Source of the DNA: Tagaea sp.
Lineage (GTDB): Bacteria > Pseudomonadota > Alphaproteobacteria > CACIAM-22H2
Assembly (NCBI GenBank): GCA_965279525.1
Contig: CBDIIB010000004.1
Coordinates: 960,001-1,024,000 of the forward strand
DNA length: 64,000 bases
Direction: 5' to 3'
Position numbers and translations under genes: made by a program. Of this stretch, positions 1-35,006 are shown in pieces. The notes under the pieces are model-generated. The model did not search any database and had not been told where the DNA came from. It worked only from the letters and a program-made list of their open reading frames with translations. The first letter of the stretch is position 1, and the number at the start of each line of letters is the position of its first letter.

Positions 1-2
1 TC

Positions 3-1460
3 GCACCGGATGTCGGCGGTGCGTTCGGCGGCAAGGCCTCGCTCTATCCGGAAGAGGCCGCGGTCGCACTTGCCGCACTTCGGCTGCACCGGCCGGTCGC
101 TTGGACCGCCACCCGATCGGACGAATTCCTTGCCGCAACGCATGGGCGCGGATCGACGACGCACGGCTCGCTTGCGCTCGCTGAAGACGGAACGATGCTC
201 GGGCTGAAAGCGAGCATCGCATCGCCACTCGGGCACTGGATGTCGTATTCGGCTGTCGTGCCGGCCCGCAACGCGGCGCGCATCCTGCCCGGACCGTATC
301 GCGTTCCGGCTGTCGCCCTGTCTGCAAACGGCAGATGCGATGCGCATGCACCTGTCGGCATCTATCGCGGCGCCGGCCGCCCGGAGGCCGCGATGCTGAT
401 GGAGCGGCTCGTCGAAACGGCCGCCCGTGACCTCGGCATGGACCCCGCCGAGTTGCGCCGCATCAATATGGTGCGCCCGGCAGATCTCCCTGCGGCGCTG
501 CCGGCCGGTGGCAAACTCGACTCGGGCGATTTTCCAGCACTGCTGGACGATGCGCTGCGCCTGGCCGGTTACGCGGATGCGCGCGCCCGGATCGATATGC
601 GCCGCGCGAAAAACGAGATCTGCGGCATCGGACTGGCGCTCTACGTCGAACCGTGCGGCCAGGGCTGGGAAAGCGCCACGCTCCGCCACGACGGCGGCGG
701 GCAGTTCACGCTCCTGACAGGTTCGACGGCGCAAGGGCAAGGGCGCGAGACGGCTTTCGCGCAGATCGCGGCCGAAGCGCTGGATGTACCTCTCGAGGCG
801 ATCACCGTGCGCCATGGCGACACGTCGGTGTCGCCGCCTGGCATCGGCGCGCTGGCAAGCCGCTCGACCGCGATCGGCGGAAGCGCCATCGTGCGCGCGG
901 CCGAAACCCTGATCGCTTCGCTGGGCGGGCGACCGGCAAGCGGCTGGTCGTCGGCACCTGCCGGCGAGGCCGCGATCGTCTATGAAGCCGCTGGCGAAGC
1001 CTGGAGCAGCGGCTGCTGCATCGCCTTCGTCGCGATAGACCGGGACACAGGCGCCCTGACAGTCGAGAATGTCGTCTGGGTCGACGATGCCGGGACCGTG
1101 ATCAATCCGATGCTCGTCGAGGGCCAGTTGCGTGGCGGCCTCGCCCAGGGTCTCGGCGAGGCGCTCATGGAACGGATCGTCTATGACGCCGACGGACAGC
1201 TCCTGACCGGTTCGCTGATGGACTATGCGGTTCCGCGCGCTCGCGATATTCCGCCGACCGTTCTGGCGAGCCGCTCGTCCCCTTCGCCGGCCAACCTGCT
1301 TGGCGCAAAGGGCGTGGGCGAGGCCGGCTGCATCGGCATTCCGGCGGCGATCGTCAACGCCGCCGTCGACGCGCTGGCACGATTTGGCATACGACATCTC
1401 GACATGCCGTTGAGCGCCGAGAAGCTTTGGCGTGTGATCGATTCTGGAGAAAAGCGATGA
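3..1460 (+). CDS. Xanthine dehydrogenase/CoxL-family molybdopterin-binding large subunit (5'-truncated by window edge)
   Basis: Frame is open from base 3 (APDVGGAFGGK, then YRGAGRPEA, QGQGRET, DAGTVINP, GAKGVGEAG); YRGAGR loop is form II/hydroxylase-like, not the AYxCSFR of true CODH. Confidence 0.9.
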   Translation, partial: APDVGGAFGGKASLYPEEAAVALAALRLHRPVAWTATRSDEFLAATHGRGSTTHGSLALAEDGTMLGLKASIASPLGHWMSYSAVVPARNAARILPGPYRVPAVALSANGRCDAHAPVGIYRGAGRPEAAMLMERLVETAARDLGMDPAELRRINMVRPADLPAALPAGGKLDSGDFPALLDDALRLAGYADARARIDMRRAKNEICGIGLALYVEPCGQGWESATLRHDGGGQFTLLTGSTAQGQGRETAFAQIAAEALDVPLEAITVRHGDTSVSPPGIGALASRSTAIGGSAIVRAAETLIASLGGRPASGWSSAPAGEAAIVYEAAGEAWSSGCCIAFVAIDRDTGALTVENVVWVDDAGTVINPMLVEGQLRGGLAQGLGEALMERIVYDADGQLLTGSLMDYAVPRARDIPPTVLASRSSPSPANLLGAKGVGEAGCIGIPAAIVNAAVDALARFGIRHLDMPLSAEKLWRVIDSGEKR

Positions 1461-2416
1461 TCTACAGCCGTGCGGATGCCAAGCGCCATGCGCGCGCCAA
1501 CCTCAAGGGTATCTGGGCTGCCGCCCTTACGCCGTTCAAGGCGGGCGATGGCGCGATCGACGAGGGCGGATTCCGGCGGAACATCGATCATTGGATCGGC
1601 GATCTCGGGATCGACGGCCTTTTCATCGCCGGAAAGCAGGGCGAGTTCTTTTCCATGTCGCTTGCCGAGCGCAAGCGGACCTTTGAGATCGCGGTGGACG
1701 CCGTCGGCGGCCGCGCCGGCACGATCATGTCGTGCTCGGACCAGAACATGGATGTCGTGATCGATCTGGCCCGTCACGCGCAGAAGGTCGGTGCCCAATA
1801 TATCGTCGTGCATGCGCCCGTCCTGCATTTCCTCAAGGAGCGCGACGAGACTCTGTTCGCCTACTACAGCCACATCGCCAGCCAGGTCGATATCGGCATC
1901 GCCCTGTGGAGCCATCCGGACTCGGGCTACCTGATGAGCCCGCAGCTCTGCGCCCGTCTTGCGGAGATCCCGAACGTGGTCGCCATCAAATACTCCGTTC
2001 CCCGACCGATGTACGCCGAGCTGACGCGGCTTGCAGGAGATCGGCTGATCGTGTCGACCGCGTCGGAAGAAGAATGGTTCGACAACGTCGTCGAACTCAA
2101 ATGGCAGGTTTATCTGTGTTCCAACCCGCCATTCCTTTTCCAGACGAAAGCGGACCGCCGCATGCGGGACTATACCGATCTTGCGTTTGCCGGACGGACC
2201 GGGGAGGCGCGCGCGATGCGCGACAGCCTGGAGCCGGTGCGCGAGGCGTTCCGCAAGACGCGCCCGGCCGAAAAGCCCCATGCGCATGCGAAGTACTGGC
2301 AGGATCTGCTGGGCCAGACCGGCGGCAGCGTCCGCCGCCCGATGCTGGACCTGACATCCGCCGAGAAGGACGCCATCACGCGCGCCATCGCCGATTGCGG
2401 CCTTGTTCGCGGCTGA
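1457..2416 (+). CDS. Dihydrodipicolinate synthase/N-acetylneuraminate lyase family protein (non-canonical aldolase/hydratase-aldolase)
   Basis: ALTPF, GKQGEF (cf. GTTGE), Schiff-base Lys in VVAIKYS; ATGA overlap with upstream stop. Confidence 0.85.
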   Translation: MIYSRADAKRHARANLKGIWAAALTPFKAGDGAIDEGGFRRNIDHWIGDLGIDGLFIAGKQGEFFSMSLAERKRTFEIAVDAVGGRAGTIMSCSDQNMDVVIDLARHAQKVGAQYIVVHAPVLHFLKERDETLFAYYSHIASQVDIGIALWSHPDSGYLMSPQLCARLAEIPNVVAIKYSVPRPMYAELTRLAGDRLIVSTASEEEWFDNVVELKWQVYLCSNPPFLFQTKADRRMRDYTDLAFAGRTGEARAMRDSLEPVREAFRKTRPAEKPHAHAKYWQDLLGQTGGSVRRPMLDLTSAEKDAITRAIADCGLVRG

Positions 2417-2434
2417 TACGGAGGGACATCACGC

Positions 2435-2995
2435 ATGCCGACGCCCATGGATCTGCCCTTCTCGAAGCCCTTCAATTTCTCGAGTTGGATCGAGGAGAAC
2501 CGCCATCTTCTCAAGCCGCCGGTCGGGAACAAGCAGCTGTTCACCGGTACGGACATGATCGCGATGGTCGTCGGCGGTCCCAATTCGCGCGTCGACTTCC
2601 ACGACGACCCGGCTGAGGAGTTCTTCCACCAGATCAAGGGCGACATGCTCCTCAAGATCGCCGACCGCGGAAAGATCTACGACTTGCCGATCCGGGAAGG
2701 CGAAGTCTTCATGCTGCCGGCCCATGTCCGCCATTCGCCGCAGCGCCCGGTTGCGGGATCGGTCGGACTCGTGGTCGAGGGGCGCCGCCGTCCGGGCGAT
2801 CGCGACGGATTCGAGTGGTTCTGTTTCGGCTGCGGAGCCCTGATCCACCGGGTCGAGATCGACCTCAAGGATATCGTCAAGGACTTGCCGCCGCTGTTCG
2901 AAGCCTTCTACGCCGACACGCATGCGCGAAGGTGCCAGGCCTGCGGCACGGTGCACCCCGGCAAGACGCCGCCGGCCGGTTGGGTAGCGGCGTGA
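2435..2995 (+). CDS. nbaC: 3-hydroxyanthranilate 3,4-dioxygenase
   Basis: LLKPPVGNK, VGGPNSRVDFHDDPAEEFF, HSPQRP, rubredoxin-like CFGC...CQAC. Confidence 0.93.
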   Translation: MPTPMDLPFSKPFNFSSWIEENRHLLKPPVGNKQLFTGTDMIAMVVGGPNSRVDFHDDPAEEFFHQIKGDMLLKIADRGKIYDLPIREGEVFMLPAHVRHSPQRPVAGSVGLVVEGRRRPGDRDGFEWFCFGCGALIHRVEIDLKDIVKDLPPLFEAFYADTHARRCQACGTVHPGKTPPAGWVAA

Positions 2996-3092
2996 TTCCG
3001 GATAGCGGGCATCGGCCGCGGAATTGCAAGCGGACCGATGCACGCCTACAGTCCTTCCAGATAGTTCCTCGTACCCCGGAGACTGACGCGAC

Positions 3093-4586
3093 ATGAACAG
3101 CCCGATGCGCGAACCGCAGGTCGCCGTCACCCGGTATGGGAAGCTCAAGGGCACGATCGAGAACGGGGTCGAGGCATATCGTGCCGTGCCCTACGCGATG
3201 CCGCCGACCGGCGAACGCCGCTTCCGCCCGCCGGAGCCGCCGGCCGCGTGGACGGGCGAGCGCGACGCGACCGTGCACGGGCCCGTCGCACCGCAGAACC
3301 GTTCGCGTCTCGCGATCCCGATGGGCGATTTCGTCCGGCCGCAGGGCGAAGACTGCCTGACACTGACGGTCTGGACTCCGGCCGCCGACGGGAAACGCCG
3401 TCCCGTGCTGGTCTGGCACCACGGCGGCGCTTTCGTCAGCGGTGCCGGCTCGCTCGACTGGTATTCGGGCGCAAGTCTCGCGAAGCACTGCGACGTCGTC
3501 GTCGTCGGCGTCAACTACCGGCTCGGCGTCCTCGGTTTCATGCACAAGCCGGGACTTTCGGAAACCAATCTGGGCCTGCGCGACCAGATCGCGGCACTCG
3601 AGTTCGTCCACGCCAACATCGCTTCGTTCGGCGGCGATCCCGACGCGATCTCGGTCGGCGGGCAGTCGGCCGGCGGCATGTCGGTGATGGCGCTGCTTGC
3701 GATTCCGGCCACCCGGAAATTGTTCAAGCGCGCGCTGATCCAGAGTTCGCCTTTCGGACGCGATCTGCGTTCGGTCGACGAAGCTGCGGCCACCGCCGCC
3801 AAGGTCGAGGAATTCCTCGGCATCAAGAGCGACGCACAGTGGCGCGATGCGGCCCCGGCCGACATCCTCGCCGCGCAGATGAAGACCATGATGCACCATG
3901 CCAAGTTCGCCGACGCGTCGTCGCCGTTCTGGCCCGTCGCCGACCGCGAGCTGTTCGGCGTCGACATGGCGGCATCGGCCCTCGCCGGGGCTGCCGACCG
4001 CGAAGTGATCGTCGGCTATACGCGCCACGAGTCGACGGCGTTCTTCGCCAAGAACGAACAGGTCCTCAAGGCCGACGATGCGGCCGTCGAGCGCCGGTTC
4101 CGCGACTATTTCGGCGCGGATGCAAGGGCTGCCATGGCCGAGTACGCGGCACGCACCGGCGAAACGAGCGCGGTCACGCTGCTCTCCGAGATGGTCGGTG
4201 ATGCGGCACTTGCCGCCAAGTCGATCGAGTTCTGCGACCGCCTGTCGACGATCGGCAAGCCCGCCTATGTCTACCGATTCGACTGGGCGGCACCGGGAAA
4301 TCCGTTCCGCGCGTGCCACTGCATCGAACTGCCCTTCATGTTCGATTCCCTGCCCCACTGGTCGGCTCCGATGCTTGAAGGCGGCGATCCGGCCGGCATG
4401 GCGGCATTGGCGGCACAGATGCGCGACAGCTGGGCCGCCTTCGTGAGGACAGGCAACCCCAACGTGGCCGGACTGCCGGAGTGGCCGCGCTACGATACGG
4501 CCACGCGCCGGACGATGCTGTTCGACGTTCCCTCCCGGGTCGCGGACGATCCGGCCGGGCGCAAGCGCTGGCGCTACTGGCCGTGA
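3093..4586 (+). CDS. Carboxylesterase type B (p-nitrobenzyl esterase-like)
   Basis: EDCLTLTVW, HGGAF oxyanion motif, GQSAG nucleophile, ACHCIELPF catalytic His. Confidence 0.9.
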   Translation: MNSPMREPQVAVTRYGKLKGTIENGVEAYRAVPYAMPPTGERRFRPPEPPAAWTGERDATVHGPVAPQNRSRLAIPMGDFVRPQGEDCLTLTVWTPAADGKRRPVLVWHHGGAFVSGAGSLDWYSGASLAKHCDVVVVGVNYRLGVLGFMHKPGLSETNLGLRDQIAALEFVHANIASFGGDPDAISVGGQSAGGMSVMALLAIPATRKLFKRALIQSSPFGRDLRSVDEAAATAAKVEEFLGIKSDAQWRDAAPADILAAQMKTMMHHAKFADASSPFWPVADRELFGVDMAASALAGAADREVIVGYTRHESTAFFAKNEQVLKADDAAVERRFRDYFGADARAAMAEYAARTGETSAVTLLSEMVGDAALAAKSIEFCDRLSTIGKPAYVYRFDWAAPGNPFRACHCIELPFMFDSLPHWSAPMLEGGDPAGMAALAAQMRDSWAAFVRTGNPNVAGLPEWPRYDTATRRTMLFDVPSRVADDPAGRKRWRYWP

Positions 4587-5365
4587 GCGCCGCCGCGATC
4601 TCGTTTGAAGATGTGCGCCTGACGCTCGGCGGCGACCGGATCTACGATTCGGTCGATTTTTCCGTTCGTCCGGGCGAATTCGTCTGCCTGCTCGGGCCCT
4701 CCGGATGCGGCAAGTCGACATCGCTCCGGATCATCGGGGACCTCATCGCGCCGGACTCCGGTACGGTCAAGGTTCTCGGCCGCCCGCCGAAGGAGTCGTG
4801 GTCGGATGTCGCGTTCGTCTTCCAGTCCCCGCGATTGGTTGCCTGGCGTACCGCCATTGCCAATGTCCTTCTGGGTGTTGAACTGCGCTTCGGCAAGGCC
4901 GAGGCGCGCACGCGGGCAGACAAGGCGCGCGCCCTTCTCGCGATGGTCGGACTTGCCGACAGTGCTGGAAAGTATCCGCTCATGCTGTCCGGCGGCGAGC
5001 GCCAGCGCGTCGCCATCGCGCGCGCACTCGCGGTGGATCCGACCATCGTGCTGATGGACGAGCCGTTTTCGGCACTCGATCCGAACACGCGCCGGCGGCT
5101 GCGCGGCGAGATCGAGCGCATCTGGCAGGAAACCGGAAAGACGGTGCTGTTCGTCACGCACGACATCGACGAGGCGCTGACCCTCGCCGACCGTATCGTG
5201 CTGCTTTCGAACAAGCCGACCCGGGTGCTCGAGATCGTCGACGTCCCGGCCGCGCGGCCGCGCGCGCTCAAGTCCGATCCGGCACTTGTCGCCTTGCACG
5301 AACGCCTGAATTCCCTGTTCCGCTCTCTCGAACCCGATGCTCCAACCGAGGACCCCCAGCCATGA
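4583..5365 (+). CDS. NitT/TauT-family ABC transporter ATP-binding protein
   Basis: GPSGCGKST Walker A, LSGGERQR signature, MDEPFSALD; GTG start overlapping upstream stop. Confidence 0.92.
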   Translation: MSAAAISFEDVRLTLGGDRIYDSVDFSVRPGEFVCLLGPSGCGKSTSLRIIGDLIAPDSGTVKVLGRPPKESWSDVAFVFQSPRLVAWRTAIANVLLGVELRFGKAEARTRADKARALLAMVGLADSAGKYPLMLSGGERQRVAIARALAVDPTIVLMDEPFSALDPNTRRRLRGEIERIWQETGKTVLFVTHDIDEALTLADRIVLLSNKPTRVLEIVDVPAARPRALKSDPALVALHERLNSLFRSLEPDAPTEDPQP

Positions 5366-6363
5366 CCGCGATCCGTCCGACCCGCCGTGCGATCCTCGCC
5401 GGCACAGCTGCTACCCTGCTCGCCGCACCGGCCGCCCTGCGCGCGCAGACAAAGCCCAAAGTGACCTATGCGTATCTGCTCGATCCGGCCTACGACGCGG
5501 TCACGTGGGCGATCAAGAACGGCAAGGTGCGCTCCGACACGATCGACGTCGAGGCGACCGGCATGAACATCCCCACGCTCCTGCAGGTCACGGCGACCCG
5601 CCAGTACGACGTGGTGATGACCGCCGTGATCGGCGTGCCTGCGGCGATCGCACGGGGGCTGGATCTGCGCATCCTGTCGGCGGCGCTCTACACGTCGCCG
5701 GCCGGCGAAGGTGGCGGCGTGTGGGTCAACAAGGGCAGCACGCTCCGTGATCCGCGTGAACTCAAGGGAAAGACGCTCGGCTCCTACGGCCTTCGTGCGA
5801 CCGGCTACATGTTCGTGCGCGAGGCATTGGCCAAGCGCTTCGGGCTCAACATGGCGCTCGAGGGCGGCGACGTCCGCCAGGTCGAGATCGCGGCCCCCAA
5901 CCTGCCTGCCGCACTTTCGACGAACCGCGTGGAAGCCGCCACGCTGATCCACTCGCAGGCCTATCGCGCGATCGAGACGGGCGAGTACGTGAACATCTGC
6001 GAGTCTGCCGCGATCAACAACGAGATCCACGGGCGCCTCGTCTCGGCCGTCAATGTCGGTTATGCTGACCGCCTCGGCGAGCGCGCGGCGCAATTCCGCG
6101 AGTTCAACCGCCTGCTGAAGGCGTCCGTCACCTACGCACTTGCCAACCGCGACGAGGTATTCGGCGATGTTGCCAAGCAGGCCAACATCGACCGGAAGTT
6201 CTTCGACTGGTGGTTCGACCGCACGACCGACGTACCGGCCATTTTCGCCGCAGAGCATGCCTCGGCCGTGACGAAGGCCTGGAACATCGGCCTCGGCTTC
6301 GGGATGATCCAGGCCGTTCCGGCAGTCGACACGCTGACATGGGACCAGACCTTGCGGGCCTGA
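5362..6363 (+). CDS. NitT/TauT-family ABC substrate-binding protein (Tat signal)
   Basis: TRRAILAG twin-arginine signal, ELKGKTLG motif, operon context. Confidence 0.85.
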   Translation: MTAIRPTRRAILAGTAATLLAAPAALRAQTKPKVTYAYLLDPAYDAVTWAIKNGKVRSDTIDVEATGMNIPTLLQVTATRQYDVVMTAVIGVPAAIARGLDLRILSAALYTSPAGEGGGVWVNKGSTLRDPRELKGKTLGSYGLRATGYMFVREALAKRFGLNMALEGGDVRQVEIAAPNLPAALSTNRVEAATLIHSQAYRAIETGEYVNICESAAINNEIHGRLVSAVNVGYADRLGERAAQFREFNRLLKASVTYALANRDEVFGDVAKQANIDRKFFDWWFDRTTDVPAIFAAEHASAVTKAWNIGLGFGMIQAVPAVDTLTWDQTLRA

Positions 6364-6367
6364 CGGC

Positions 6368-7144
6368 GTGCGCGCGAGATCCGACACGGTAAAGGCAGGC
6401 GTTGCGGCACTCTTCCTGGCAGTCCTGATGGGCGCCTGGATGATCATGGCCGCACGTCTGCCGCCTTACATGCTGCCGCCGCCGGAGCGCGTGCTTCAAG
6501 CGGCCGGCCGGTTCTTCACCTCTTCGCGCCAGCTCGGCCATCTGACGGCCACGCTGTTCAATGTCGGCACGTCGATCGTCGTGGCATTCGGACTTGGCGG
6601 CACGCTCGCCCTGCTGGCGCACTACCTGCGACCGTCGGCACCGACGATCCACGGGCGCCTCAGCCCCTTCCTGAACGCGTTTCCGGGAGTCGGCTGGACG
6701 CTGCTTGCGGTCATCTGGTTCGGCGTCTCGACGACATCGGTCGTCTTCTCGATCACCGTCGTCCTTCTGCCGTTCGCACTGGTGAACCTGCGCGAGGGTC
6801 TCGCCGCACTCGACCGGGAGATCGACGAGATGGCGCGCAGCTTTGGACGCGACGGGCGGCGCCTGTTTTTCGCGATCGTCCTGCCGGCGCTGGCACCGTT
6901 CGCCGCGGCCACCTTGCGGATCATGTTCGGCGTCGCGTGGAAGGTGACGCTGACGGCCGAACTTTTCGGCGGCAGCGAGGGGCTGGGTTACCTCATCAAC
7001 ATCGCGCGACAGGAATACGACACCGAGACTATTTTCACCGTCGTGCTGACGATCGTCGTCGCGGTCTATCTCGCCGACCGCTTCCTGTTCGCACCGATGG
7101 AGCGGGCCACCGCCCGCCAGTTCGGACTGGAACGGCGGCGATGA
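6368..7144 (+). CDS. NitT/TauT ABC permease
   Basis: Hydrophobic helices, LPPPERV, EAA-like DEMARSFG, AELFGGSEGLG. Confidence 0.88.
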   Translation: MRARSDTVKAGVAALFLAVLMGAWMIMAARLPPYMLPPPERVLQAAGRFFTSSRQLGHLTATLFNVGTSIVVAFGLGGTLALLAHYLRPSAPTIHGRLSPFLNAFPGVGWTLLAVIWFGVSTTSVVFSITVVLLPFALVNLREGLAALDREIDEMARSFGRDGRRLFFAIVLPALAPFAAATLRIMFGVAWKVTLTAELFGGSEGLGYLINIARQEYDTETIFTVVLTIVVAVYLADRFLFAPMERATARQFGLERRR

Positions 7145-7899
7145 GCTATCTCCGGCAGCCTTGGCCCGTCTGGGCCGCCAATGCCGCCGTCGCTGCGGCA
7201 CTTGGCGCATGGGCCTTTGGCGCCGGCAGCCTGCCCGAATTCGTGCTGCCCGGTCCCTTGGCGGTCGGCAAGCGGTTGGTCGCACTATTCACCGAACCGA
7301 CGTTCCTGTCGCACACGCTGGCATCGGTGACGCGGGTCCTGCTGTCCGTCGCACTTGCCCTGGCGATCGGCGGCGGGCTCGCGCTCCTCAATCGCGCCGT
7401 TCCGGCGGTCGACTGGGTGGTGCGCGGCATGGTGCTGCCGTTCTTCAGTTCGTTCCCGTCGATCGGCTGGGCGATCCTCGCCGCCATCTGGTTCCAGCCG
7501 GGCCATTTCGCGGTCGTCTTCGTGCAGGTCGCGATCCTGATCCCGTTCTGCCTGATCAACATCGCCGAGGGCCTTCGCCAGATCGACCGCGAAACGGTCG
7601 AAATGGCCGACAGTTTCACGCGCAATCGGTCGCGTATCGTCCTGTGGGTGATGGCGCCGCTGTTGCTGCCCTATGTCCTTGGCGCGTTGCGCATCGCCTA
7701 TGGCATCGCGTGGAAGATCGCACTGGTGGCGGAACTTCTGGGCGCGACGTCCGGGTTGGGATTCCTGATGCTCCAGTCGCAGGGCTCGGCCGACATGCCG
7801 ACCGTCATGGCAGCATGCGCCGCCGTTGTCCTGCTGTTCGTTGCCGGCGAAAAGCTGATCCTCGATCCGATCGCGCGGAAGTTTTCGGTTCGTGGATAA
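7141..7899 (+). CDS. NitT/TauT ABC permease (second)
   Basis: LPGPLAV, EMADSF, AELLGATSGLG; ATGA overlap. Confidence 0.88.
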   Translation: MSYLRQPWPVWAANAAVAAALGAWAFGAGSLPEFVLPGPLAVGKRLVALFTEPTFLSHTLASVTRVLLSVALALAIGGGLALLNRAVPAVDWVVRGMVLPFFSSFPSIGWAILAAIWFQPGHFAVVFVQVAILIPFCLINIAEGLRQIDRETVEMADSFTRNRSRIVLWVMAPLLLPYVLGALRIAYGIAWKIALVAELLGATSGLGFLMLQSQGSADMPTVMAACAAVVLLFVAGEKLILDPIARKFSVRG

Positions 7900-8001: not shown

Positions 8002-10239
<2,238 letters not shown>

Positions 10240-11516: not shown

Positions 11517-11518
11517 CG

Positions 11519-12259: not shown

Positions 12260-12296
12260 ACCGAAGGACCGGAAAATCCGGCAGAGGGAGGAAGAC

Positions 12297-22730: not shown

Positions 22731-22838
22731 GTCGGCCGTCGCGCGAACTGGCACCATCCGCGACGATGGACTAACATCCTTTTCTCACCGAACCGGTATC
22801 GCAAGCGCACACAAGTCCCGCGCCGCAGGCCCCCCCGA

Positions 22839-24141: not shown

Positions 24142-24334
24142 CGTCTGTCTCCCTGCGGCATCGCGCCGTTTGCAGCGCTGGTCGTGAATTCTATACCGCG
24201 GGACGGCACTCCACGCCATGCGCAGTCCCATTATCCTTGATAATTCGGCGTAGTAGATCGTTTGATTGGGGCGACAATTCGCTTCTTGCCATAAACTCGA
24301 CGGCATCGGATGGCCATCGCCTGCGGAGGACGAG

Positions 24335-25087: not shown

Positions 25088-25092
25088 CCGCG

Positions 25093-25917: not shown

Positions 25918-25927
25918 GGGAGTTCCC

Positions 25928-26743: not shown

Positions 26744-26769
26744 TGCGTCTCCTTGTCGAACGTTCCCGG

Positions 26770-27486: not shown

Positions 27487-27563
27487 CGTCGCGTTTCCGT
27501 CGGTTTCGTTTCTGATTGGCCCCCGTCGGGGGACGTCAACATGGAGTGTCGGGGTCGATGCGG

Positions 27564-28376
27564 TCAATTCCGCCGTGCCGGCAGGCCGGCAAGGAACTCT
27601 GCCACAACGACATCGAAGGCCGCCGCGTTTTCCACGTTCGCGATATGGCTCGCATCGGGCAGAAGCGCGAAGCGTGAGTCCGGTACGGCGGACGCCATGT
27701 CCCGCATGGCGTCAGGTGGTGCGGCAAGGTCGTCGGCGCCCGCGACGAACAGGCTGGGTACCGCGATGCGGCCGAGATGGCGCCTGTAATCGAGCGCCAT
27801 CAATGCGGCGGCGCAGCCGCGATAGCCGTCGACGGGCATGGTGCGGATCGCCTCGGCGAAACGCGCCACGACCGCCGGCTGCGACGCGCGGAAACCGGCG
27901 CCGAACCAGCGCTCGATCGTGCCCGGCACGATCGCCGCCATGCCACCCGCCTCGATGGCCGCCAGGCGATCCTGCCAGCCTTTCACGTAGAGCGGCGGAG
28001 CGTCCGCACGCGCATCGCAGCAGATCAGCGCCTCGATGCGCTGCGGGTGGTCCAGCGCCACGCCGAGCCCGGTCATGCCACCCAGCGAAAGTCCCATGAA
28101 GACGGCCTTGCCGACCTCGTGGGCATCCATCACGGCAATCGCGTCGGCGACCAGATCGTCGAAGCCATAGGGCGCCGGCGGCACGCCGCTCGCCCCGTGG
28201 CCGCGCGTGTCGTAGCGCAGCACGTTGTGCGTCCGGACAAGTGCCGGAATCTGCGGATCCCACATGCGGTGGTCGGCCGCCAGACTGTTCGACAGCACGA
28301 TCCAGCCGGCTCCGGGACTTGCGGCACGGTCGACCCGCGCGAACAGCGCAAAGCCGCCTCTCGCCACTTCGGTCAT
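27564..28376 (-). CDS. 3-oxoadipate enol-lactonase-like alpha/beta hydrolase
   Basis: SNSLAADHRMWDPQ, YDTRGHG, GLSLGG, HIANVE. Confidence 0.8.
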   Translation of the reverse strand: MTEVARGGFALFARVDRAASPGAGWIVLSNSLAADHRMWDPQIPALVRTHNVLRYDTRGHGASGVPPAPYGFDDLVADAIAVMDAHEVGKAVFMGLSLGGMTGLGVALDHPQRIEALICCDARADAPPLYVKGWQDRLAAIEAGGMAAIVPGTIERWFGAGFRASQPAVVARFAEAIRTMPVDGYRGCAAALMALDYRRHLGRIAVPSLFVAGADDLAAPPDAMRDMASAVPDSRFALLPDASHIANVENAAAFDVVVAEFLAGLPARRN

Positions 28377-29473
28377 GCGACGCGGGTCTTGCGTTCGGCA
28401 GCGTTGACCTTCGGCAGCACCTTCTCGGCAAGCAGAATCATCGACTGCCTGCCCAGATCCCGGCTGACCCAATCCTTGCCGGCATAAAGCAGCGTGCCGA
28501 AGTCCCCGACTTCCTCGCGGAACGCCAGCAGCTCCTCGGCCACCTTCGACGGCGAACCGTGGATGATCAGCTTCTCGCACACCATGTCGGTCGTCACCGC
28601 ATCGTCGGGCATATCGCGGCTCGACTTGAAGAGTTCGGCGCGGCCGTTCTTCTTCAGCTTGGTGACGAGCTGGTTGTAATAGTGGCGATACGGGCTGTTC
28701 GGCCCGGTCGCGTACTCGCGCGCCGTCCTGTCGTCTTCGGCGACGAACACGCTCTTGGCCACGCGCCAGTTCGCGGGATCGGCGCGGCGCCCGGCGCGCG
28801 TGCAGCCCTCGACATAGCTCGGCCAATGGGTCTTGACCCAGTTCGGCATCAGGAAGTTCGCGGAGATCGGCTCCCAGCCGCGCGCGGCGGCTTCGGTCAC
28901 GCCCTTGGAAAAGGGCGCCACGGCCGTCACGACGATTTCGGGATGCGGCCGCTGCAGCGGCCGGGGAACGTAGCCCTGCCCGATTTCTTCCATCAGCGTG
29001 CGGGCGGTCGATACGTTCCAGTACTTTCCATTGAGGTCGTACGGTGCCGCCTGCGACCAGAGTGCCAGGACATGATTGATGCACTCGAGGAACATCTCGT
29101 TGCGGTTGTTGGCGAGATTCCCGAAGGCTTCGGCATCCGAAAGGAGCCCCCCCGGGCTGATTCCGAAGATGAAACGGCCGTCGAGCAGATGGTCCAGCAT
29201 CGCGATCTGCGAGGCGACCGCCACGGGATGGCTGTTGGGCAGGTTCACGGTGCCCGTTCCAAGCCTGATGTTCTTCGTCGCGGAAGCGAGGCTTGCGAGG
29301 AACATCGTGCACGACGTGATGTTTTCGGACAGGTCGGTCGCGTGCTCGCCTGCATAGGCTTCGGCGAAGCCCAGCTCGTCGGCAAGCAGGAAAGCCTCGC
29401 GGTCCTCCCGGAGACACTGCCGCCAATCCTTGTCGATCGGATGGATCGGCATCGTGAAGAAACCGAGCTTCAT
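28373..29473 (-). CDS. Luciferase-like (LLM) flavin-dependent monooxygenase
   Basis: ADELGF..AY.GEH, ATKNIRLGTG, LDHLLDGRF. Confidence 0.9.
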   Translation of the reverse strand: MKLGFFTMPIHPIDKDWRQCLREDREAFLLADELGFAEAYAGEHATDLSENITSCTMFLASLASATKNIRLGTGTVNLPNSHPVAVASQIAMLDHLLDGRFIFGISPGGLLSDAEAFGNLANNRNEMFLECINHVLALWSQAAPYDLNGKYWNVSTARTLMEEIGQGYVPRPLQRPHPEIVVTAVAPFSKGVTEAAARGWEPISANFLMPNWVKTHWPSYVEGCTRAGRRADPANWRVAKSVFVAEDDRTAREYATGPNSPYRHYYNQLVTKLKKNGRAELFKSSRDMPDDAVTTDMVCEKLIIHGSPSKVAEELLAFREEVGDFGTLLYAGKDWVSRDLGRQSMILLAEKVLPKVNAAERKTRVA

Positions 29474-29530
29474 TCGGGCGCCCCGCAGTTATATGGCGCT
29501 ATCAATGGCAGCGTTCGGCACGCGGTTGAA

Positions 29531-29567
29531 ATCATCTGTTCTGAACGCGCACATCACGATTTTTACT
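29531..29567. promoter_or_regulatory. Putative LysR binding sites in LLM/cupin divergent promoter
   Basis: ATCA-N7-TGAA at 29531 and second ATCA at 29553 (22-bp spacing), similar to 22694/22716. Confidence 0.4.
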
Positions 29568-29676
29568 GGACGTGAAGTCCCTTCGGCTTTGGAAGCGCGA
29601 CAAGCTGGGTGTATGGTCGCGTCAATGTCCGCCCGATTTCGAGTGTCGGCGCGCGAACGAACAAGCGAGGGAGAGA

Positions 29677-30153
29677 ATGCCGAACAAACCGAGCGCCGGC
29701 GGATCCAGTCAGATGACCCGCCGCCCGCCGCGCGGCGTCAAGGCCGGCAAGGGCAAGTATCTCTTCAAGATGGTCGGGCTCAACAGCGTCGAAGCCGGGC
29801 CCGACTACTCGACCGCACACGGCTCGGTCGTGGAGGGCGAGCGCTTCATGATGGGCCTGCTGCGCATGCCGAAGGGTACCGGTGCTGCAGCGCACAATCA
29901 TCCCAATGAACAATGGGTCTATATCATCGAAGGCACGCTGGCGTTCGAAGTCGACGGGAAGAAGGGTGTCGCCACACCCGGCTCGCTGCTCTATTTCCCG
30001 CCCAATGCGGTGCACGCGACGCAGGCTTCCGCCGATCGCGACGTCGTGTTCCTGACCGGGAAGGACCTCAGCCACGGCCTGTGGGGCAACCGGATCGGCA
30101 AGAAGCCGGCGGCACCCGCCGCGAAGACCAAGAAGCGCGTCCGCGCACGCTGA
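29677..30153 (+). CDS. Cupin domain protein with Lys-rich C-tail
   Basis: HNHPNEQ...PPNAVHAT; RBS GAGGGAGA upstream. Confidence 0.85.
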   Translation: MPNKPSAGGSSQMTRRPPRGVKAGKGKYLFKMVGLNSVEAGPDYSTAHGSVVEGERFMMGLLRMPKGTGAAAHNHPNEQWVYIIEGTLAFEVDGKKGVATPGSLLYFPPNAVHATQASADRDVVFLTGKDLSHGLWGNRIGKKPAAPAAKTKKRVRAR

Positions 30154-30158
30154 CATCC

Positions 30159-30908
30159 ATGCGCTTGAAGGACAAAGTCGCGATCGTCACCGGTGCAGCA
30201 CACGGCATCGGCGCCGCAGTCGTACGCGCCTTCGCGCGCGAAGGGGCCAGGGTCATCGTCGGCGACATTCTCGACGACGAGGGCAGGAAGCTTGCCGACG
30301 ACGTCAACAGGGCGGCCGGCGCCGTCGTCGCCGTCTACATGAATTTCGACGTGACCAAGGCGGCACATTGGGACGATGCGGTCGCACTTGCGGAATCCAC
30401 GTTCGGCAAGCTCGACCTGCTGGTCAACAACGCCGGCGTCCCCGGCCGCCCGGGCGTGGAGGACACGACCGAGGAGAGCTGGAACCGCACGATGGACGTC
30501 GACCTAAAGGGAACCTGGCTCGGCATGAAGGCCTGCATGCCGGCATTCCGGCGGGCGGGCGGCGGTGCGGTCGTCAACACGTGCTCCAACTATGCGCTCG
30601 TCGCGTCGGGCCGTGCCGCGGTCTATCACAGCGCGAAAGGCGGCGTGCTGAGCCTGACGCGCGCCGCGGCGGTCGAGTATGCGCGCCAGAAGATCCGGGT
30701 GAACGCAGTGCTTCCGGGCGTGGTCGCGACACCGCGCAACGCATCCCTGCCGGCCGACTGGGCCAAGACGCTGATCGACCAGACGCCGCTGGGCCGCATC
30801 GCCCAACCCGACGAGATAGCACCGGCCTACGTGTTTCTCGCTTCCGACGAAGCCTCGTTCGTCACCGGCGCTTCGCTGGTCGTCGACGGCGGCTACACAT
30901 CCATCTGA
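30159..30908 (+). CDS. SDR family oxidoreductase
   Basis: TGAAHGIG, NNAG, YHSAK. Confidence 0.9.
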   Translation: MRLKDKVAIVTGAAHGIGAAVVRAFAREGARVIVGDILDDEGRKLADDVNRAAGAVVAVYMNFDVTKAAHWDDAVALAESTFGKLDLLVNNAGVPGRPGVEDTTEESWNRTMDVDLKGTWLGMKACMPAFRRAGGGAVVNTCSNYALVASGRAAVYHSAKGGVLSLTRAAAVEYARQKIRVNAVLPGVVATPRNASLPADWAKTLIDQTPLGRIAQPDEIAPAYVFLASDEASFVTGASLVVDGGYTSI

Positions 30909-30920
30909 ACGGCGGAGCAT

Positions 30921-32660
30921 ATGGAAAAGACCGAAGTTCGCGACGGCATGCACGTCACGTGGGATACGCCGATCACGATGGATGACGGCCTCGTCGTGCG
31001 GGCCGACATCTTCCGGCCTCTCGCCCCGGGCCGCTATCCGGCAATCCTGACCTACGGGCCCTACGCCAAGGGCCTCGCTTTCCAGGACGGCTACCCCAGT
31101 GCCTGGAAGCTGCTTTCGGACCAGCATCCCGAAGCGCTCGCGGGGTCGAGCAACCTCTACCAGAGCTGGGAACTCGTCGATCCCGAGAAGTGGGTTCCGG
31201 ATGGCTATGTCTGCGTGCGCGTCGACTCGCGCGGTGCGGGCCGCTCGCAGGGCTTTCTCGATCCGTGGTGCCCGCGCGAGACGCGCGATTTCTACGAATG
31301 CATCGAATGGTGCGCGCGTCAGGACTGGTCGAACGGCAAGGTCGGGCTCAACGGCATCTCCTACTACGCGATCAACGCCTGGCAGGTCGCCTCGCTGCAG
31401 CCGCCGCACCTCACCGCCATGTGCGTGTGGGAAGGTGCTGCGGATTTCTACCGCGACATGACCTATCACGGCGGCATCCTGTCGACCTTCTTCGCCAACT
31501 GGTTCGACATGCAGGTGAAGACGGTGCAGCACGGCGTGGGCGAGCGCGGCAAGCGCAGCCGCGCCACCGGCGAGCTTGCCTGCGGGCCTGAAGTTCTGTC
31601 GGACGCCGAACTGGAGGCCAACCGCTCCGACTTCGGCGCCGACATCTTCGCCCATCCGTTCGACGACCAGTATCACCGCGACCGCTCGCCCGATTGGGAC
31701 AAGGTCGTCACGCCGTTCCTGTCGGCGGCAAGCTGGGCGGGCCAGGGCCTGCACCCGCGCGGAAACTTCGAAGGATTCATGCGCGCCAAGGCGCCGCAGA
31801 AGTGGCTCGAGATCCACGGGCTCGAGCACTGGACGCATTTCTACACGCCCTACGGCGAGGCGTTGCAGAAGAAGTTCTTCGGCCATTTCCTGAAAGGCGA
31901 GCGCAATGGCTGGGAAAGTCAGCCGCGCGTTCTGATGCAGGTCCGCCATCCCGGCGAGCGTTTCGTCGAGCGCCACGAGAGCGAATGGCCGCTGGCGCGC
32001 ACGAAATGGACGCGCTTCCATCTCGATCCCGCCGGCATGGTCCTGACCGAAAAGGCGCCGGCCGGGCCGGCGAATATTCCGTACGAGACGATGGGCAAGG
32101 GTCTGACGTTCCTCACCCCGCCGCTGACCGAGGAAGTCGAGATCGCCGGCCCGTCCGCCGCCAAGATCTTCGTATCGTCGCCGACGAACGACGCGGATAT
32201 CTTCATGATGGTCCGCGTGTTCGATCCGGCGGGCAAGGAAGTGGTCTTCTCCGGTACGGTCGATCCGCACACGCCGGTCGCCCAGGGCTGGCTGCGCGCC
32301 TCGCGCCGCAAACTAGACCCGAAGCTTTCGCTGCCCTACCGCCCCTACCACGTCCACGACGAGGACCAGAAGCTTGTGCCCGGGCAGGTCTACGAGCTCG
32401 ACATCGAGATCTGGCCGACCGGCATCGTCGTGCCGCCGGGTTACCGCATCGGCGTGAGCGTTCTCGGCAGGGACTACGAGTGGGACGGTCCCGGCGTGCG
32501 CCTTTCGAACTTCAAGAACGAACTGCGCGGCTGCGGCCCGTTCCTGCACAACGATCCGCGCAACCGGCCGTCCGACGTGTTCGACACGACGCTCACCCTG
32601 CATACCGGGCCGGGCATGGCGTCGAGCGTGCTGCTCCCCATCATTCCGAAGAAGGCCTAA
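30921..32660 (+). CDS. CocE/NonD family serine hydrolase
   Basis: LVVRADIFRP, DSRGAGRSQG, GISYYA nucleophile, C-terminal jelly-roll GWLRAS. Confidence 0.92.
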   Translation: MEKTEVRDGMHVTWDTPITMDDGLVVRADIFRPLAPGRYPAILTYGPYAKGLAFQDGYPSAWKLLSDQHPEALAGSSNLYQSWELVDPEKWVPDGYVCVRVDSRGAGRSQGFLDPWCPRETRDFYECIEWCARQDWSNGKVGLNGISYYAINAWQVASLQPPHLTAMCVWEGAADFYRDMTYHGGILSTFFANWFDMQVKTVQHGVGERGKRSRATGELACGPEVLSDAELEANRSDFGADIFAHPFDDQYHRDRSPDWDKVVTPFLSAASWAGQGLHPRGNFEGFMRAKAPQKWLEIHGLEHWTHFYTPYGEALQKKFFGHFLKGERNGWESQPRVLMQVRHPGERFVERHESEWPLARTKWTRFHLDPAGMVLTEKAPAGPANIPYETMGKGLTFLTPPLTEEVEIAGPSAAKIFVSSPTNDADIFMMVRVFDPAGKEVVFSGTVDPHTPVAQGWLRASRRKLDPKLSLPYRPYHVHDEDQKLVPGQVYELDIEIWPTGIVVPPGYRIGVSVLGRDYEWDGPGVRLSNFKNELRGCGPFLHNDPRNRPSDVFDTTLTLHTGPGMASSVLLPIIPKKA

Positions 32661-32666
32661 ACGACC

Positions 32667-33665
32667 ATGACGTCCGTCGCGTTGATCGGTCTCGGCTGGT
32701 GGGGCAAGACGATGGCCCGCCTGCTGGCATCCAGCTCCCGCCTCAAGCTCGTGCGCGCCGTCGACATCGACCCCGCCGGTGCCGAACTCGCGCGTCAGAT
32801 GGGAATCCGCTTCTCCACCAGCTACGCGGACGCGCTCGCCGATCCCGAGGTGCAGGCGGTGATCCTGTGCACGCCGCACGCGCAGCACCGCGAGCAGATC
32901 CTCGCCGCCGTCGCGGCGCGCAAGCACGTGTTCTGCGAGAAGCCGCTGGCCCTGAACCGCACCGATGCGGTCGAATGCGTGGAGGCATGCCGGGCCGCGA
33001 AGCTCGTGCTCGGCATCGGGCACGAGCGCCGCTTCGAGCCGCCGATCCTCGAACTGCGCCGGCTGCTCGCCGAAGGCACGCTCGGCACGCCACTGCAGAT
33101 CGAGGCGAATTTCAGCCAGGACAAGTTCCTGAACCTGCCTGCGGACAACTGGCGCCTGTCCGCCAAGGATGCGCCGGCAGGACCGATGACCGCGACGGGC
33201 ATCCATCTGCTCGACCTGGCTGTGAGCCTGCTCGGGCCGGCACGCCGCGTCGTGGCGCATGTCGGCCAGCTCGGCAGCCAGTTGCGCAACGGCGACACGC
33301 TGGCCGTGCTCGTCGGCTTCGCGAGCGGTGCCAATGCGCTGATCAGCGCCATGCTGGCCACGCCGTTCGTCGGCCGCTTCGCGCTTTACGGCAACAAGGG
33401 CTGGGCGGAGATCGTCGACAAGGCACATCCCGAGGCGTCGGAAGGCTGGGTGATGACGACCTGCCTGCGCGGCGGAAAGCGCGAGGTGCGCGAGTTCACC
33501 GCCGCCCCTGCCGTGCTCACCAATCTGGAAGCGTTCGCCGACGCGGTCGCCGGCAAGGCGCCCTATCCGGTCACCGACGCGGAGCTTGTCGGCACGATCG
33601 CGGCACTGGAAGCCGTATTCGACTCGGCACGCCAGGGCGGCACGGTCGAAACGGTTCCCGGCTGA
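32667..33665 (+). CDS. Gfo/Idh/MocA family oxidoreductase
   Basis: GLGWWG, HVFCEKP, GHERRF. Confidence 0.9.
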   Translation: MTSVALIGLGWWGKTMARLLASSSRLKLVRAVDIDPAGAELARQMGIRFSTSYADALADPEVQAVILCTPHAQHREQILAAVAARKHVFCEKPLALNRTDAVECVEACRAAKLVLGIGHERRFEPPILELRRLLAEGTLGTPLQIEANFSQDKFLNLPADNWRLSAKDAPAGPMTATGIHLLDLAVSLLGPARRVVAHVGQLGSQLRNGDTLAVLVGFASGANALISAMLATPFVGRFALYGNKGWAEIVDKAHPEASEGWVMTTCLRGGKREVREFTAAPAVLTNLEAFADAVAGKAPYPVTDAELVGTIAALEAVFDSARQGGTVETVPG

Positions 33666-33669
33666 TCCG

Positions 33670-34209
33670 ATGAGCGAGCGACGCCAATCCGTATCGGCCG
33701 AGGCCTTCCGGGCGGGCATGTCGCGTCTTGGCGCTGCGGTCAACATCGTCACGACCGACGGCCCGGCGGGAAAGCACGGCATCACGGCATCGGCAGTCTG
33801 CAGCGTGACCGATTCGCCGCCGACCGTGCTGGTCTGCGTCAATCGCAGCTCGAGCGCCCACGACGTCATCGTCGGCAACGGCGCCTTTTGCGTGAACGTG
33901 CTGGGCCAGGGGCACGAACAGCTGGCGATGCGCTTCGGCAAGCCCGGCATCGAACCCGTCGAGCGTTTCGCGGGCGAACACTGGACGACACTGGTGACCG
34001 GCTCGCCGCTGCTGAAGGACGCCACTGCCGGGTTCGATTGCCGCGTGATCGACCGCCATGCGGTGGGCACGCACAGCGTGATCGTCGCCGAGGTGGTCGG
34101 CATCGCGAAGGCCGACCTCGGCCAGAGCCTGATCTATTTCGACCGCTCCTTCCATGCGCTCAGCCCGCGCCCGCAGGAACACGTCGGGATGCACCGGGAG
34201 CGAACCTGA
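33670..34209 (+). CDS. Flavin reductase (HpaC/RutF-like)
   Basis: FRAGMSRLGAAVNIVTT, SVTDSPPTVLVCVN, GTHSV. Confidence 0.92.
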   Translation: MSERRQSVSAEAFRAGMSRLGAAVNIVTTDGPAGKHGITASAVCSVTDSPPTVLVCVNRSSSAHDVIVGNGAFCVNVLGQGHEQLAMRFGKPGIEPVERFAGEHWTTLVTGSPLLKDATAGFDCRVIDRHAVGTHSVIVAEVVGIAKADLGQSLIYFDRSFHALSPRPQEHVGMHRERT

Positions 34210-34262
34210 TCTTCCCTTTCGCGCCCCGACCGGAAATCCGGTTTCAAAGGAGAAATCGTGCG

Positions 34263-35006
34263 ATGCCGAAGTCACTCTCGCCGCAGGCGGTCGCGGAATA
34301 TCATGCGACGGGCTTCCGGTTTCCGGTTCCCGCACTGGCCGAAGACGAAGCGCGTTCCTATCGCCAGCGCCTGGAGGCATTCATCGACGAGAACGGCGGC
34401 AGCAAGGGTGCACGAAAGCTTCTGTTCGAGAAGGCGCATCTGAGGTGCCCACCGCTCGCCGAACTCGTCCGCCACCCGAAGATACTCGATGCCGTCGAGG
34501 ACGTGCTTGGCCCGGACATCCTCTGCTGGGCATCCACGATCTTCCTGAAGGAGCCGCAAGACAACGCATATGTCTCCTGGCATCAGGATGCGATGTACTG
34601 GGGTCTCGATCCTGCCGATGTCGTGACGGCGTGGGTCGCCTTGACCGACAGCCAGCCGGAGAACGGCGCGATGCAGGTTCTCCCGGAAAGCCATCTCGGC
34701 GCGCTGTTCCGCCACAACGAGACATTTGCGCCAGACAACATGCTTACGCGCGGACAGGAAATCGCCGTCGAGGTCGATCCCGCGAAAGTCGTCACGCTCG
34801 CCCTTCGCGCCGGGGAGATGTCGCTGCATCACGTGAAACTGGCGCACGGCTCGGCTGCGAACAGGTCCGGGAACCGGCGGATCGGCTACGCGATCCGCTA
34901 CGTTGCACCGCATGTCCGGCAAAGCAACAGCGGGCGCGACAGGGCGACGCTTCTTCGCGGCGTCGACAGGTTCGGGAACTTCCGGCCGGAATCCGCGCCG
35001 GACTGA
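34263..35006 (+). CDS. PhyH family Fe(II)/2OG dioxygenase (C-terminus shorter than paralog)
   Basis: SWHQD, NGAMQVLPESH, HGS, RIGYAIRY; strong similarity to 17684-18535. Confidence 0.88.
   Translation: MPKSLSPQAVAEYHATGFRFPVPALAEDEARSYRQRLEAFIDENGGSKGARKLLFEKAHLRCPPLAELVRHPKILDAVEDVLGPDILCWASTIFLKEPQDNAYVSWHQDAMYWGLDPADVVTAWVALTDSQPENGAMQVLPESHLGALFRHNETFAPDNMLTRGQEIAVEVDPAKVVTLALRAGEMSLHHVKLAHGSAANRSGNRRIGYAIRYVAPHVRQSNSGRDRATLLRGVDRFGNFRPESAPD

Follow-up and report, generated by a model that had tools for sequence, protein, structure and literature searches.

We analyzed a 64,000-nt stretch of DNA from a Tagaea species (called the window below; G000:C4:960001-1024000), in which the gene for 3-hydroxyanthranilate 3,4-dioxygenase (HAO) directly follows the gene of an unusual member of the DHDPS/NAL superfamily, here called the DHDPS-like protein. 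The genome, G000, comprises 4.35 Mb with a G+C content of ~66% and is 97% complete. Open reading frames (ORFs) were called from codon-position G+C, and the proteins were then scanned against Pfam and NCBIfam. The unit that holds HAO is an operon of ~9.6 kb, which begins some 1.7 kb left of the window and extends to 7899, and not the 35 kb that an earlier note on this DNA had read as one pathway funnelling N-heteroaromatic compounds into 3-hydroxyanthranilate (3-HAA). In this operon, a divergent LysR gene precedes the genes for a molybdenum (Mo) hydroxylase large subunit, the DHDPS-like protein, HAO, a type-B carboxylesterase and an NMT1-type ABC importer. All the genes from 1 to 7899 are on the + strand with spacings of -4 to 97 nt, and the tight packing claimed in the earlier note holds for this part.

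The Mo-hydroxylase large subunit belongs to the xanthine dehydrogenase/CoxL family (716 aa; 1..1460, +) and starts 690 nt to the left of the window (L002:17310); it contains the hammerhead domain and both MoCo-binding domains of the family (Ald_Xan_dh_C, MoCoBD_1 and MoCoBD_2; PF01315, PF02738 and PF20256). The divergent LysR gene lies 85 nt upstream of it, across an AT-rich intergenic region. The DHDPS-like ORF spans 1427..2416 (+) and likely starts at ATG 1457, which gives a protein of 319 aa and a 4-nt overlap with the Mo stop codon. HAO (2435..2995, +) is followed by the carboxylesterase (3093..4586, +), which is p-nitrobenzyl-esterase-like (Pfam COesterase, 324 bits; PDB 8WDM, 2OGT and 1C7I, 306-335 bits). 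The importer consists of a NitT/TauT-type ATPase (4481..5365, +; Pfam ABC_tran, with the NCBIfam ntrCD/taurine-type models below cut-off), whose start codon is uncertain and whose ORF overlaps the esterase gene, an NMT1/SsuA-like periplasmic binding protein (5362..6363, +; Pfam NMT1, 34.9 bits), a first permease (6368..7144, +; Pfam BPD_transp_1), and a second permease as the last gene of the operon (6937..7899, +), with BPD_transp_1 at ORF residues 144-302 and the true start probably at ~7140-7190. The nearest relative, G019, has the same operon gene for gene with 75-91% identity, and the similarity ends after the last permease.

3-HAA is a branch point of tryptophan catabolism, 2-nitrobenzoate catabolism and NAD synthesis. 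HAO scores above the cut-offs of two NCBIfam equivalogs (NF009763, 260.6 bits vs 220; TIGR03037, 240.2 vs 145.95) and is ~60% identical to the solved Cupriavidus enzyme (1YFU, 233.7 bits). The alignment keeps R47, H51, E57, H95, R99, E110 and the four Cys positions of 1YFU, among which we take His51, Glu57 and His95 to be the Fe ligands, Arg47, Arg99 and Glu110 to be substrate contacts, and the cysteines to form the Cys4 site of the Cupriavidus enzyme. Judged by these sequence features, HAO is a bona fide 3-HAA 3,4-dioxygenase, and would therefore open the ring to 2-amino-3-carboxymuconate semialdehyde (ACMS). A homolog that cleaves another o-aminophenol carboxylate degraded by the module, such as a substituted 3-HAA, would fit the differences in hydrolases and importers between versions of the module described below, and substrate range is not readable from sequence; considering the ~60% identity to a structurally characterized enzyme, the passed equivalogs and the retention of all aligned contact positions, we regard this as improbable. 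Apart from the operon, metagenomes contain a 588-aa ORF (P0124; 6 member sequences, 3 contigs) in which an HAO 70% identical to that of the window is joined to a luciferase-like monooxygenase, which may mark yet another HAO context.

The DHDPS-like protein matches PF00701 with 112 bits (cut-off 22.1), which places it in the superfamily. Its score against the dapA equivalog is 79.5 bits, far from the cut-off of 206.15, and it stays below every NCBIfam subfamily cut-off; KdgD is among its matches (NCBIfam 77.7 bits; PDB 4UR7). It has no close structure, its best solved relative scoring 80 bits, and no NahE/PhdJ-type hydratase-aldolase chain appears among the structure matches listed (60 of the 67 at E<=1e-10). 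The genome holds 12 DHDPS-family paralogs, and only the one at C4:749971-750822 scores like a true DapA. When nine members of the DHDPS-like family were aligned with the genome's own DapA as the reference, the Schiff-base Lys was aligned with the DapA Lys in all nine, and all nine have GKQGE in place of the DapA GTTGE, with Tyr133 exchanged for Trp and Arg138 for Ser (the catalytic residues of DapA are Thr44/Tyr107/Tyr133 and Arg138 in the numbering of the E. coli enzyme). By alignment, then, the protein is a superfamily member that is neither DapA nor any named subfamily, with the Schiff-base Lys kept and the DapA/NAL catalytic residues lost, which bears out the earlier description of a non-canonical DapA-family partner of HAO. 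It belongs to a group of over 120 database clusters (>=73% identity), mostly labelled 'dihydrodipicolinate synthase'. Six database clusters looked like Rosetta-stone fusions of DHDPS and HAO; of the four that we read, at least two (P0129 and P0135) are garbled in a frameshift-like manner, and the six were counted as adjacency only.

To describe the neighborhood of the DHDPS-like gene, one genome per species was scanned with the DHDPS-like protein as bait, and the best 80 of 560 relatives, all alphaproteobacterial, were kept as loci with 10-kb flanks. Their gene content was determined by tblastn with the window proteins and by de novo clustering of neighbors (all-against-all BLAST on 1597 ORFs with coding-like composition, out of 7229 raw ORFs), and Pfam annotation covered ~20 families present in at least six loci and some smaller ones, with families of index 28-29 left out. 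HAO is directly downstream of the DHDPS-like gene, on the same strand and within 250 nt, in 72 of the 80 loci; in one more it is 956 nt downstream, in three it is elsewhere in the locus, and in four there is none. Among 400 other Alphaproteobacteria, sampled evenly, 31 genomes have HAO, 20 have the DHDPS-like gene and 19 have both (Fisher p ~2e-23, in a sample where kin are not independent). Among these 19, the two genes are within 5 kb of each other in 13, on different contigs of fragmented assemblies in five, and 505 kb apart in one. The linkage to HAO proposed in the earlier note is thus upheld for the DHDPS-like gene (72/80 loci adjacent; 19 of 20 genomes) and fails for the CocE, cupin and luciferase-like monooxygenase (LLM) genes further right, which were found in none, none and one of the 80 loci, respectively. 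A phylum-level sample gave the DHDPS-like gene in 8 of 400 genomes, all from the class of G000, and a comparison within the genus gave it in 10 of 20 genomes.

The other members of the module are less constant. A Liv-type ABC importer is present in 56 of the 80 loci and a gene similar to aspartate dehydrogenase (AspDH) in 44, and 17 loci have the pair without any of the other usual partners. A divergent LysR with at least 40% identity is kept in 46 loci, together with an AT-rich, operator-like intergenic region; an exact ATAA-N7-TTAT box upstream of the operon was considered as a conserved operator and discarded, as it occurs in only 1 of the 46 intergenic regions and merely an AT-rich region of the kind bound by LysR-type regulators recurs. 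In three pair-only loci (L031:6467-8332, L015 and L081), a 620-aa FAD_binding_2/Succ_DH_flav_C flavoprotein is encoded just upstream of the pair; it belongs to the fumarate-reductase/L-aspartate-oxidase family, below all cut-offs, and TctC binding proteins and an M24 hydrolase follow downstream. In two Paenochrobactrum loci (L057 and L058), the DHDPS-like gene is accompanied by a BD-FAE hydrolase, Liv-type binding proteins and an MBL-fold lactonase-like gene with no HAO in the 20-kb locus, so that the link of the family to HAO is not a strict one.

Since the DHDPS-like gene persists with HAO where every other partner is missing, an action on the HAO product fits better than the trimming of a precursor side chain, the role that the earlier note had assigned to it. 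In a specific form of the latter, the DHDPS-like enzyme would act before HAO and free 3-HAA from a precursor with a 2-oxo-acid side chain, for instance a 2,4-dioxo acid derived from 3-hydroxykynurenine that it cleaves in a retro-Claisen or retro-aldol reaction, and the AspDH-like protein would be an amino-acid dehydrogenase. Class I aldolase chemistry suits a cleavage next to a 2-oxo acid, the 44 loci with AspDH and the Liv-type importers, which are of the amino-acid/aromatic-acid family, would suit such a precursor, and so would the lone kynureninase elsewhere in a genome where no tryptophan 2,3-dioxygenase (TDO) was found. However, this operon and 36 of the 80 loci are without AspDH, although the pair itself is constant; such a keto acid cyclizes spontaneously to xanthurenate; and ACMS would be left without a dedicated consumer, with no ACMS decarboxylase (ACMSD) found. 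We therefore consider this order of reactions unlikely.

The role of the Mo enzyme was approached through what replaces it. The Mo subunit is found in 15 of the 80 loci and a NAD-dependent aldehyde dehydrogenase (Aldedh) similar to succinate semialdehyde dehydrogenase in 41; no locus has both, and 24 have neither. Within the genus, the slot between LysR and the DHDPS-like gene is filled by the Mo gene in G000, G019 and G010 and by Aldedh in G018, G001, G009 and G015, and Aldedh also sits in this slot in most of the 41 loci that have it. This exchange of the two enzymes without co-occurrence suggests an oxidation at the aldehyde level after ring cleavage. As judged from gene content, the Mo enzyme would do a job that is open to a NAD aldehyde dehydrogenase, and the exchange pattern is the strongest indirect evidence on function that we have. 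By homology, the best NCBIfam match of the subunit is glyceraldehyde dehydrogenase alpha (518 bits, short of the cut-off of 790), and its nearest solved structures are CoxL (8UEM), quinoline 2-oxidoreductase (1T3Q) and a Sulfolobus oxidoreductase (4ZOH). The genome has 10 Mo large subunits and 6 Fer2_2 subunits, none of the latter near the operon's Mo gene; several of the large subunits, that of the operon included, are 'orphans', and must share or lack electron-transfer partners.

The earlier note had taken the Mo-hydroxylase for the entry enzyme of a fused N-heterocycle, which the exchange with Aldedh makes unlikely. Confined to the operon, this idea would have the Mo enzyme hydroxylate an imported N-heteroaromatic acid, from which 3-HAA would be produced through ring opening and trimming by the esterase and the DHDPS-like enzyme and then be cleaved by HAO. 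The Mo subunit reaches 345 bits with 1T3Q and 315 bits with 6-hydroxypseudooxynicotine dehydrogenase (7DQX), a hydrolase recurs in the module (the BD-FAE family in 38 loci, the COesterase here), and an FAD aromatic hydroxylase and an alpha/beta hydrolase encoded upstream in 11-12 Mesorhizobium-type loci suggest that 3-HAA is made in situ in some versions. Against these stand the presence of Mo in only 15 loci, the 41 loci with Aldedh, which is unable to hydroxylate a heterocycle, the 24 loci with neither, the persistence of the pair without any candidate ring-opening enzyme, and the resemblance of the Liv-type binding proteins to what we take to be benzoate-derivative binders. All together, we see only a small likelihood for this route.

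The hydrolase and the importer are exchanged in a similar manner. G000 and G019 have the COesterase (83% identical between the two) and the NMT1-type importer (binding protein 91% identical), whereas the other five same-genus genomes (G018, G001, G009, G015 and G010) have a non-homologous combination of a Liv-type importer with a BD-FAE/HSL-type hydrolase. The latter hydrolase family is found in 38 of the 80 loci, always co-directional and at a median distance of +6.4 kb, while the COesterase and the NMT1 binding protein of the window were found in none of the 80. From this pattern of gene content, a serine hydrolase and an importer appear to be required roles, whatever family supplies them. 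Among solved structures, the NMT1-type binding protein gave no match at E<=0.001. For the Liv-type binding protein, the closest structures are 4EVQ, 4EY3, 4EVS and 4F06, which we take to be binders of benzoate derivatives; by analogy, 3-HAA or something closely similar would fit as the imported compound. The BD-FAE hydrolase was also considered as a kynurenine formamidase; its match to 4E11 is weak (E 1e-12), ranks behind generic lipases and is uninformative. Further hydrolase-type neighbors are the MBL-fold lactonase-like proteins in L057 and L063 and M24 hydrolases in five pair-only loci.

Canonical 3-HAA catabolism proceeds from HAO through ACMSD, AMSDH and 2-aminomuconate deaminase to later steps, and 3-HAA is supplied by kynureninase and Kmo or by NbaAB. 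As the earlier note had observed for the window, there is no kynU, kmo or nbaAB near HAO, and this extends to the 18 kb to the left; the single kynureninase gene of the genome is unlinked, on contig C5, and no TDO was found in the genome. The operon has no ACMSD (Amidohydro_2), and neither Amidohydro_2 nor a RidA-type deaminase is among the conserved neighbor families annotated by Pfam. In tblastn with eight of the genome's own nine Amidohydro_2 paralogs as queries, which is a weak test, none of the 80 loci was matched. Of the same eight paralogs scanned against NCBIfam, seven are lactonase-like and one is without a match, and none is above a cut-off.

We also considered that HAO serves NAD biosynthesis, providing quinolinate from tryptophan or 3-HAA, with its neighbors being incidental. 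NadA (PF02445) was not found in the 97%-complete genome and NadB only below the cut-off, and a kynureninase is present, as this explanation would have it. NadC (TIGR00078), which is needed to use quinolinate, was not found either, however, and HAO would therefore not feed quinolinate-dependent NAD synthesis here unless the genes are in the unassembled 3%; in addition, no TDO was found, the operon has the arrangement of an inducible LysR-plus-importer system, and the module presumably occurs also in the nadABC-carrying genera Mesorhizobium and Bosea. We therefore judge a role in NAD synthesis to be extremely unlikely. The organism may depend on the salvage of nicotinate or nicotinamide, or nadABC may sit in an assembly gap.

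Taking these results together, we propose with moderate confidence that the LysR-controlled operon imports and degrades 3-HAA, or an ester or amide of it, by an ACMSD-independent route in which the DHDPS-like enzyme acts on the ring-fission product. The enzyme would replace ACMSD and work on ACMS or its oxidized form via a lysine imine, its likeliest chemistry being a deamination together with hydration and retro-aldol cleavage, or with decarboxylation. ACMS is an enamine whose imine tautomer would be a 3-substituted iminoaspartate, so that the lysine imine could exchange into C2 as ammonia leaves. Two routes can be envisaged from there. In route (a), C4 would be hydrated and C3-C4 cleaved to give oxaloacetate or iminoaspartate and a C3 aldehyde; in route (b), the iminium would serve as an electron sink, and loss of the C3 carboxylate would lead to 2-hydroxymuconate semialdehyde. 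Either route would leave an aldehyde for Aldedh or the Mo enzyme, and the product of route (a) would be a natural substrate for the AspDH-like protein, whose module copy scores above the NCBIfam aspartate-dehydrogenase subfamily cut-off (230.6 vs 177). The esterase and the ABC importer would supply the substrate, releasing 3-HAA from an ester or amide, or the esterase might open a lactone or lactam intermediate.

A fully specified version of this proposal is more tentative, and we think it rather doubtful in all its details. In this undescribed ACMSD-independent route, the DHDPS-like enzyme would hydrate and cleave ACMS or 2-amino-3-carboxymuconate at C3-C4 to give iminoaspartate or oxaloacetate and malondialdehyde or malonate semialdehyde, AspDH would convert the C4 product to L-aspartate, and Aldedh or the Mo enzyme would oxidize the aldehyde; alternatively, the Mo enzyme might rescue quinolinate, the dead end that forms by cyclization, as 6-hydroxyquinolinate, the ring of which would be reopened by a hydrolase of the esterase/lactamase type.

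Several points weigh against the proposed ACMSD-independent degradation. The substrate of the DHDPS-like family is deduced from gene linkage alone, HAO is missing from four of the 80 loci, and the genome mentioned above with 505 kb between the two genes is G097. The DHDPS-like enzyme has a Trp in place of Tyr133, a residue that DapA and NAL cannot do without, and its Schiff-base catalysis is therefore not assured. In its homology, the Mo subunit is no further from quinoline 2-oxidoreductase than from the aldehyde-oxidizing members of its family, which leaves some likelihood for a heterocycle hydroxylase, and no FeS or FAD subunit gene adjoins it, LysR being directly upstream and the DHDPS-like gene directly downstream. 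With distant paralogs as its queries, the search for ACMSD around the module is a weak one, and although no Amidohydro_2 protein of the genome was named a decarboxylase by NCBIfam, NCBIfam may hold no ACMSD model.

The genes outside the operon appear to be of other units. The 18 kb on the left contain the divergent LysR, an IlvD/Edd dehydratase, sugar-type ABC and TRAP transporters, and a second DHDPS/PhyH/AspDH-like cluster. This second cluster (L002:194-6393, G000:C4:942194-948393; - strand), 12-18 kb left of the window, is another uncharacterized DHDPS/AspDH pairing and consists of a DHDPS paralog, a PhyH dioxygenase, an AspDH-like gene, amino-acid-type ABC parts, an epimerase and a GntR regulator; its AspDH-like protein shares 29-36% identity with the AspDH encoded in the HAO modules. 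Directly after the operon is a gene for the catalase-peroxidase KatG (8029-10239; equivalog 1224 bits), which is not syntenic with the operon in G019. KatG is followed by a block of enolase-superfamily, GntR, sugar-type ABC and GMC-oxidoreductase genes (10341-17058) and then by a PAS_5 gene.

From 17684 to ~35006, genes on both strands encode PhyH, TctABC, PhyH, LysR, a cupin, short-chain dehydrogenases/reductases (SDRs; four in the whole block), a xylose-isomerase-like TIM protein, Abhydrolase_1, LLM, a cupin, a further SDR, CocE, GFO/IDH/MocA, a flavin reductase and PhyH. All the genes that the earlier note had named were found with Pfam, NCBIfam and extra ORFs, at or near where it had put them: the three PhyH-type Fe/2-oxoglutarate (2OG) dioxygenases at 17684-18535 (-), 21663-22586 (-) and 33888-35006 (+), the cupins at 23806-24513 (-) and 29572-30153, the Abhydrolase_1 protein ('PcaD-like') at 27564-28427 (-), the LLM monooxygenase at 28373-29473 (-), the CocE/NonD hydrolase at 30921-32660 and the flavin reductase at 33586-34209.

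What did not survive is their union with HAO into one 35-kb pathway, in which the LLM/flavin reductase pair, cupins, CocE, the PcaD-like hydrolase, SDRs and Fe/2OG dioxygenases would feed 3-HAA to HAO. Physical proximity, in this genome only, would favor such a pathway, as would the HAO-LLM fused ORF P0124 in metagenomes; the LLM part of P0124, however, is only 25% identical to the window LLM, and we rejected this ORF as support for the link. Within the 10-kb flanks, the cupins, CocE, GFO, flavin reductase, PhyH and xylose-isomerase-like genes are found in none of the 80 loci and LLM in one. In G009, the 17.7-34.2 kb block is syntenic (52-91% identity) on contig C12, while the HAO module is on C15. 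Of the 20 genomes of the genus, 2 have the CocE ortholog, which is missing from 9 of the 11 relatives that carry the DHDPS-like gene; CocE and LLM also occur together in G022. The split between contigs in G009, the end of synteny at the last permease in G019 and the rarity of CocE indicate that the 35-kb region consists of several independent units, only the first of which has HAO, and KatG, the sugar-acid-type operon and the PAS gene lie between the blocks. A single pathway over 1-35006 is thus very unlikely, and comparison of gene order identifies 17684-34209 as a separate catabolic island.

A full-text literature search, which did not cover subscription journals, found no description of the HAO/DHDPS-like module, the candidate papers doing no more than listing an HAO gene, in agreement with the earlier view of the operon as uncharacterized. 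The module resembles several known systems in part. Clusters of the nba/kynurenine type, which are reportedly found in Pseudomonas fluorescens KU-7 and Burkholderia cenocepacia, have the same ring-cleavage enzyme (HAO passes the NbaC equivalog) and an aldehyde-oxidation step, whereas the operon is without ACMSD or a RidA-type deaminase, has the DHDPS-like protein as the constant partner and uses, here, a Mo enzyme for the NAD aldehyde dehydrogenase. Some DHDPS/NAL members act on imine or keto acids ahead of an aldehyde dehydrogenase, namely pyrroline-4-hydroxy-2-carboxylate deaminase and the 5-dehydro-4-deoxyglucarate dehydratase KdgD, and NahE and PhdJ are hydratase-aldolases. The DHDPS-like protein is similar to these in the TIM barrel, the Schiff-base Lys and the Aldedh neighbor (41/80 loci), but it reaches no subfamily cut-off and has its Thr/Tyr catalytic residues replaced in the window enzyme. 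The protocatechuate 4,5-cleavage pathway (LigAB, LigC, LigI, LigJ and LigK) offers an analogy in which the series of roles would fit, from extradiol cleavage through semialdehyde oxidation and a hydrolase to hydration and aldol cleavage to a 2-oxo acid, although every enzyme family differs and the substrate of the module has an amino group. With the CoxL/Qor clade (CO dehydrogenase, quinoline 2-oxidoreductase and archaeal glyceraldehyde oxidoreductase), the Mo subunit shares the domain architecture and the best matches; unlike these, it is shorter (716 aa), reaches no equivalog cut-off, has no adjacent FeS/FAD genes and is interchangeable in position with a NAD aldehyde dehydrogenase.

To our knowledge, every described route past ACMS goes through ACMSD or through spontaneous cyclization to quinolinate. 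The presence of the DHDPS-like partner in 19 of the 31 HAO-carrying alphaproteobacterial genomes sampled suggests a widespread alternative fate of ACMS. A parallel comes from a recent preprint (bioRxiv 10.64898/2026.06.05.730449), which cites the 3-HAA catabolic cluster of Burkholderia cenocepacia and describes human/metazoan ASPDH as a 2-aminomuconate reductase with a shifted catalytic His; no bacterial HAO-AspDH cluster is mentioned in its passages on bacteria and gene clusters. The two cases are alike in that an AspDH homolog is coupled to HAO, in 44 of the 80 bacterial loci, and unlike in that the bacterial module copy keeps the catalytic His at the prokaryotic AspDH position and that the window operon is without AspDH, the paralog mentioned above being ~15 kb to the left; the bacterial HAO-AspDH link would thus parallel the placing of human ASPDH in the same pathway. 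The within-genus swaps of the Mo and NAD dehydrogenases, of the esterase type and of the importer type provide a natural experiment for assigning roles. If the C3-C4 cleavage route is true, it would formally run the logic of quinolinate synthase backwards and add a new type of reaction to the DapA superfamily, and if the proposed action of the DHDPS-like enzyme on the ring-fission product is true, it would give a function to a large and tightly conserved group of 'dihydrodipicolinate synthase family protein' sequences that are now mis-annotated as DapA.

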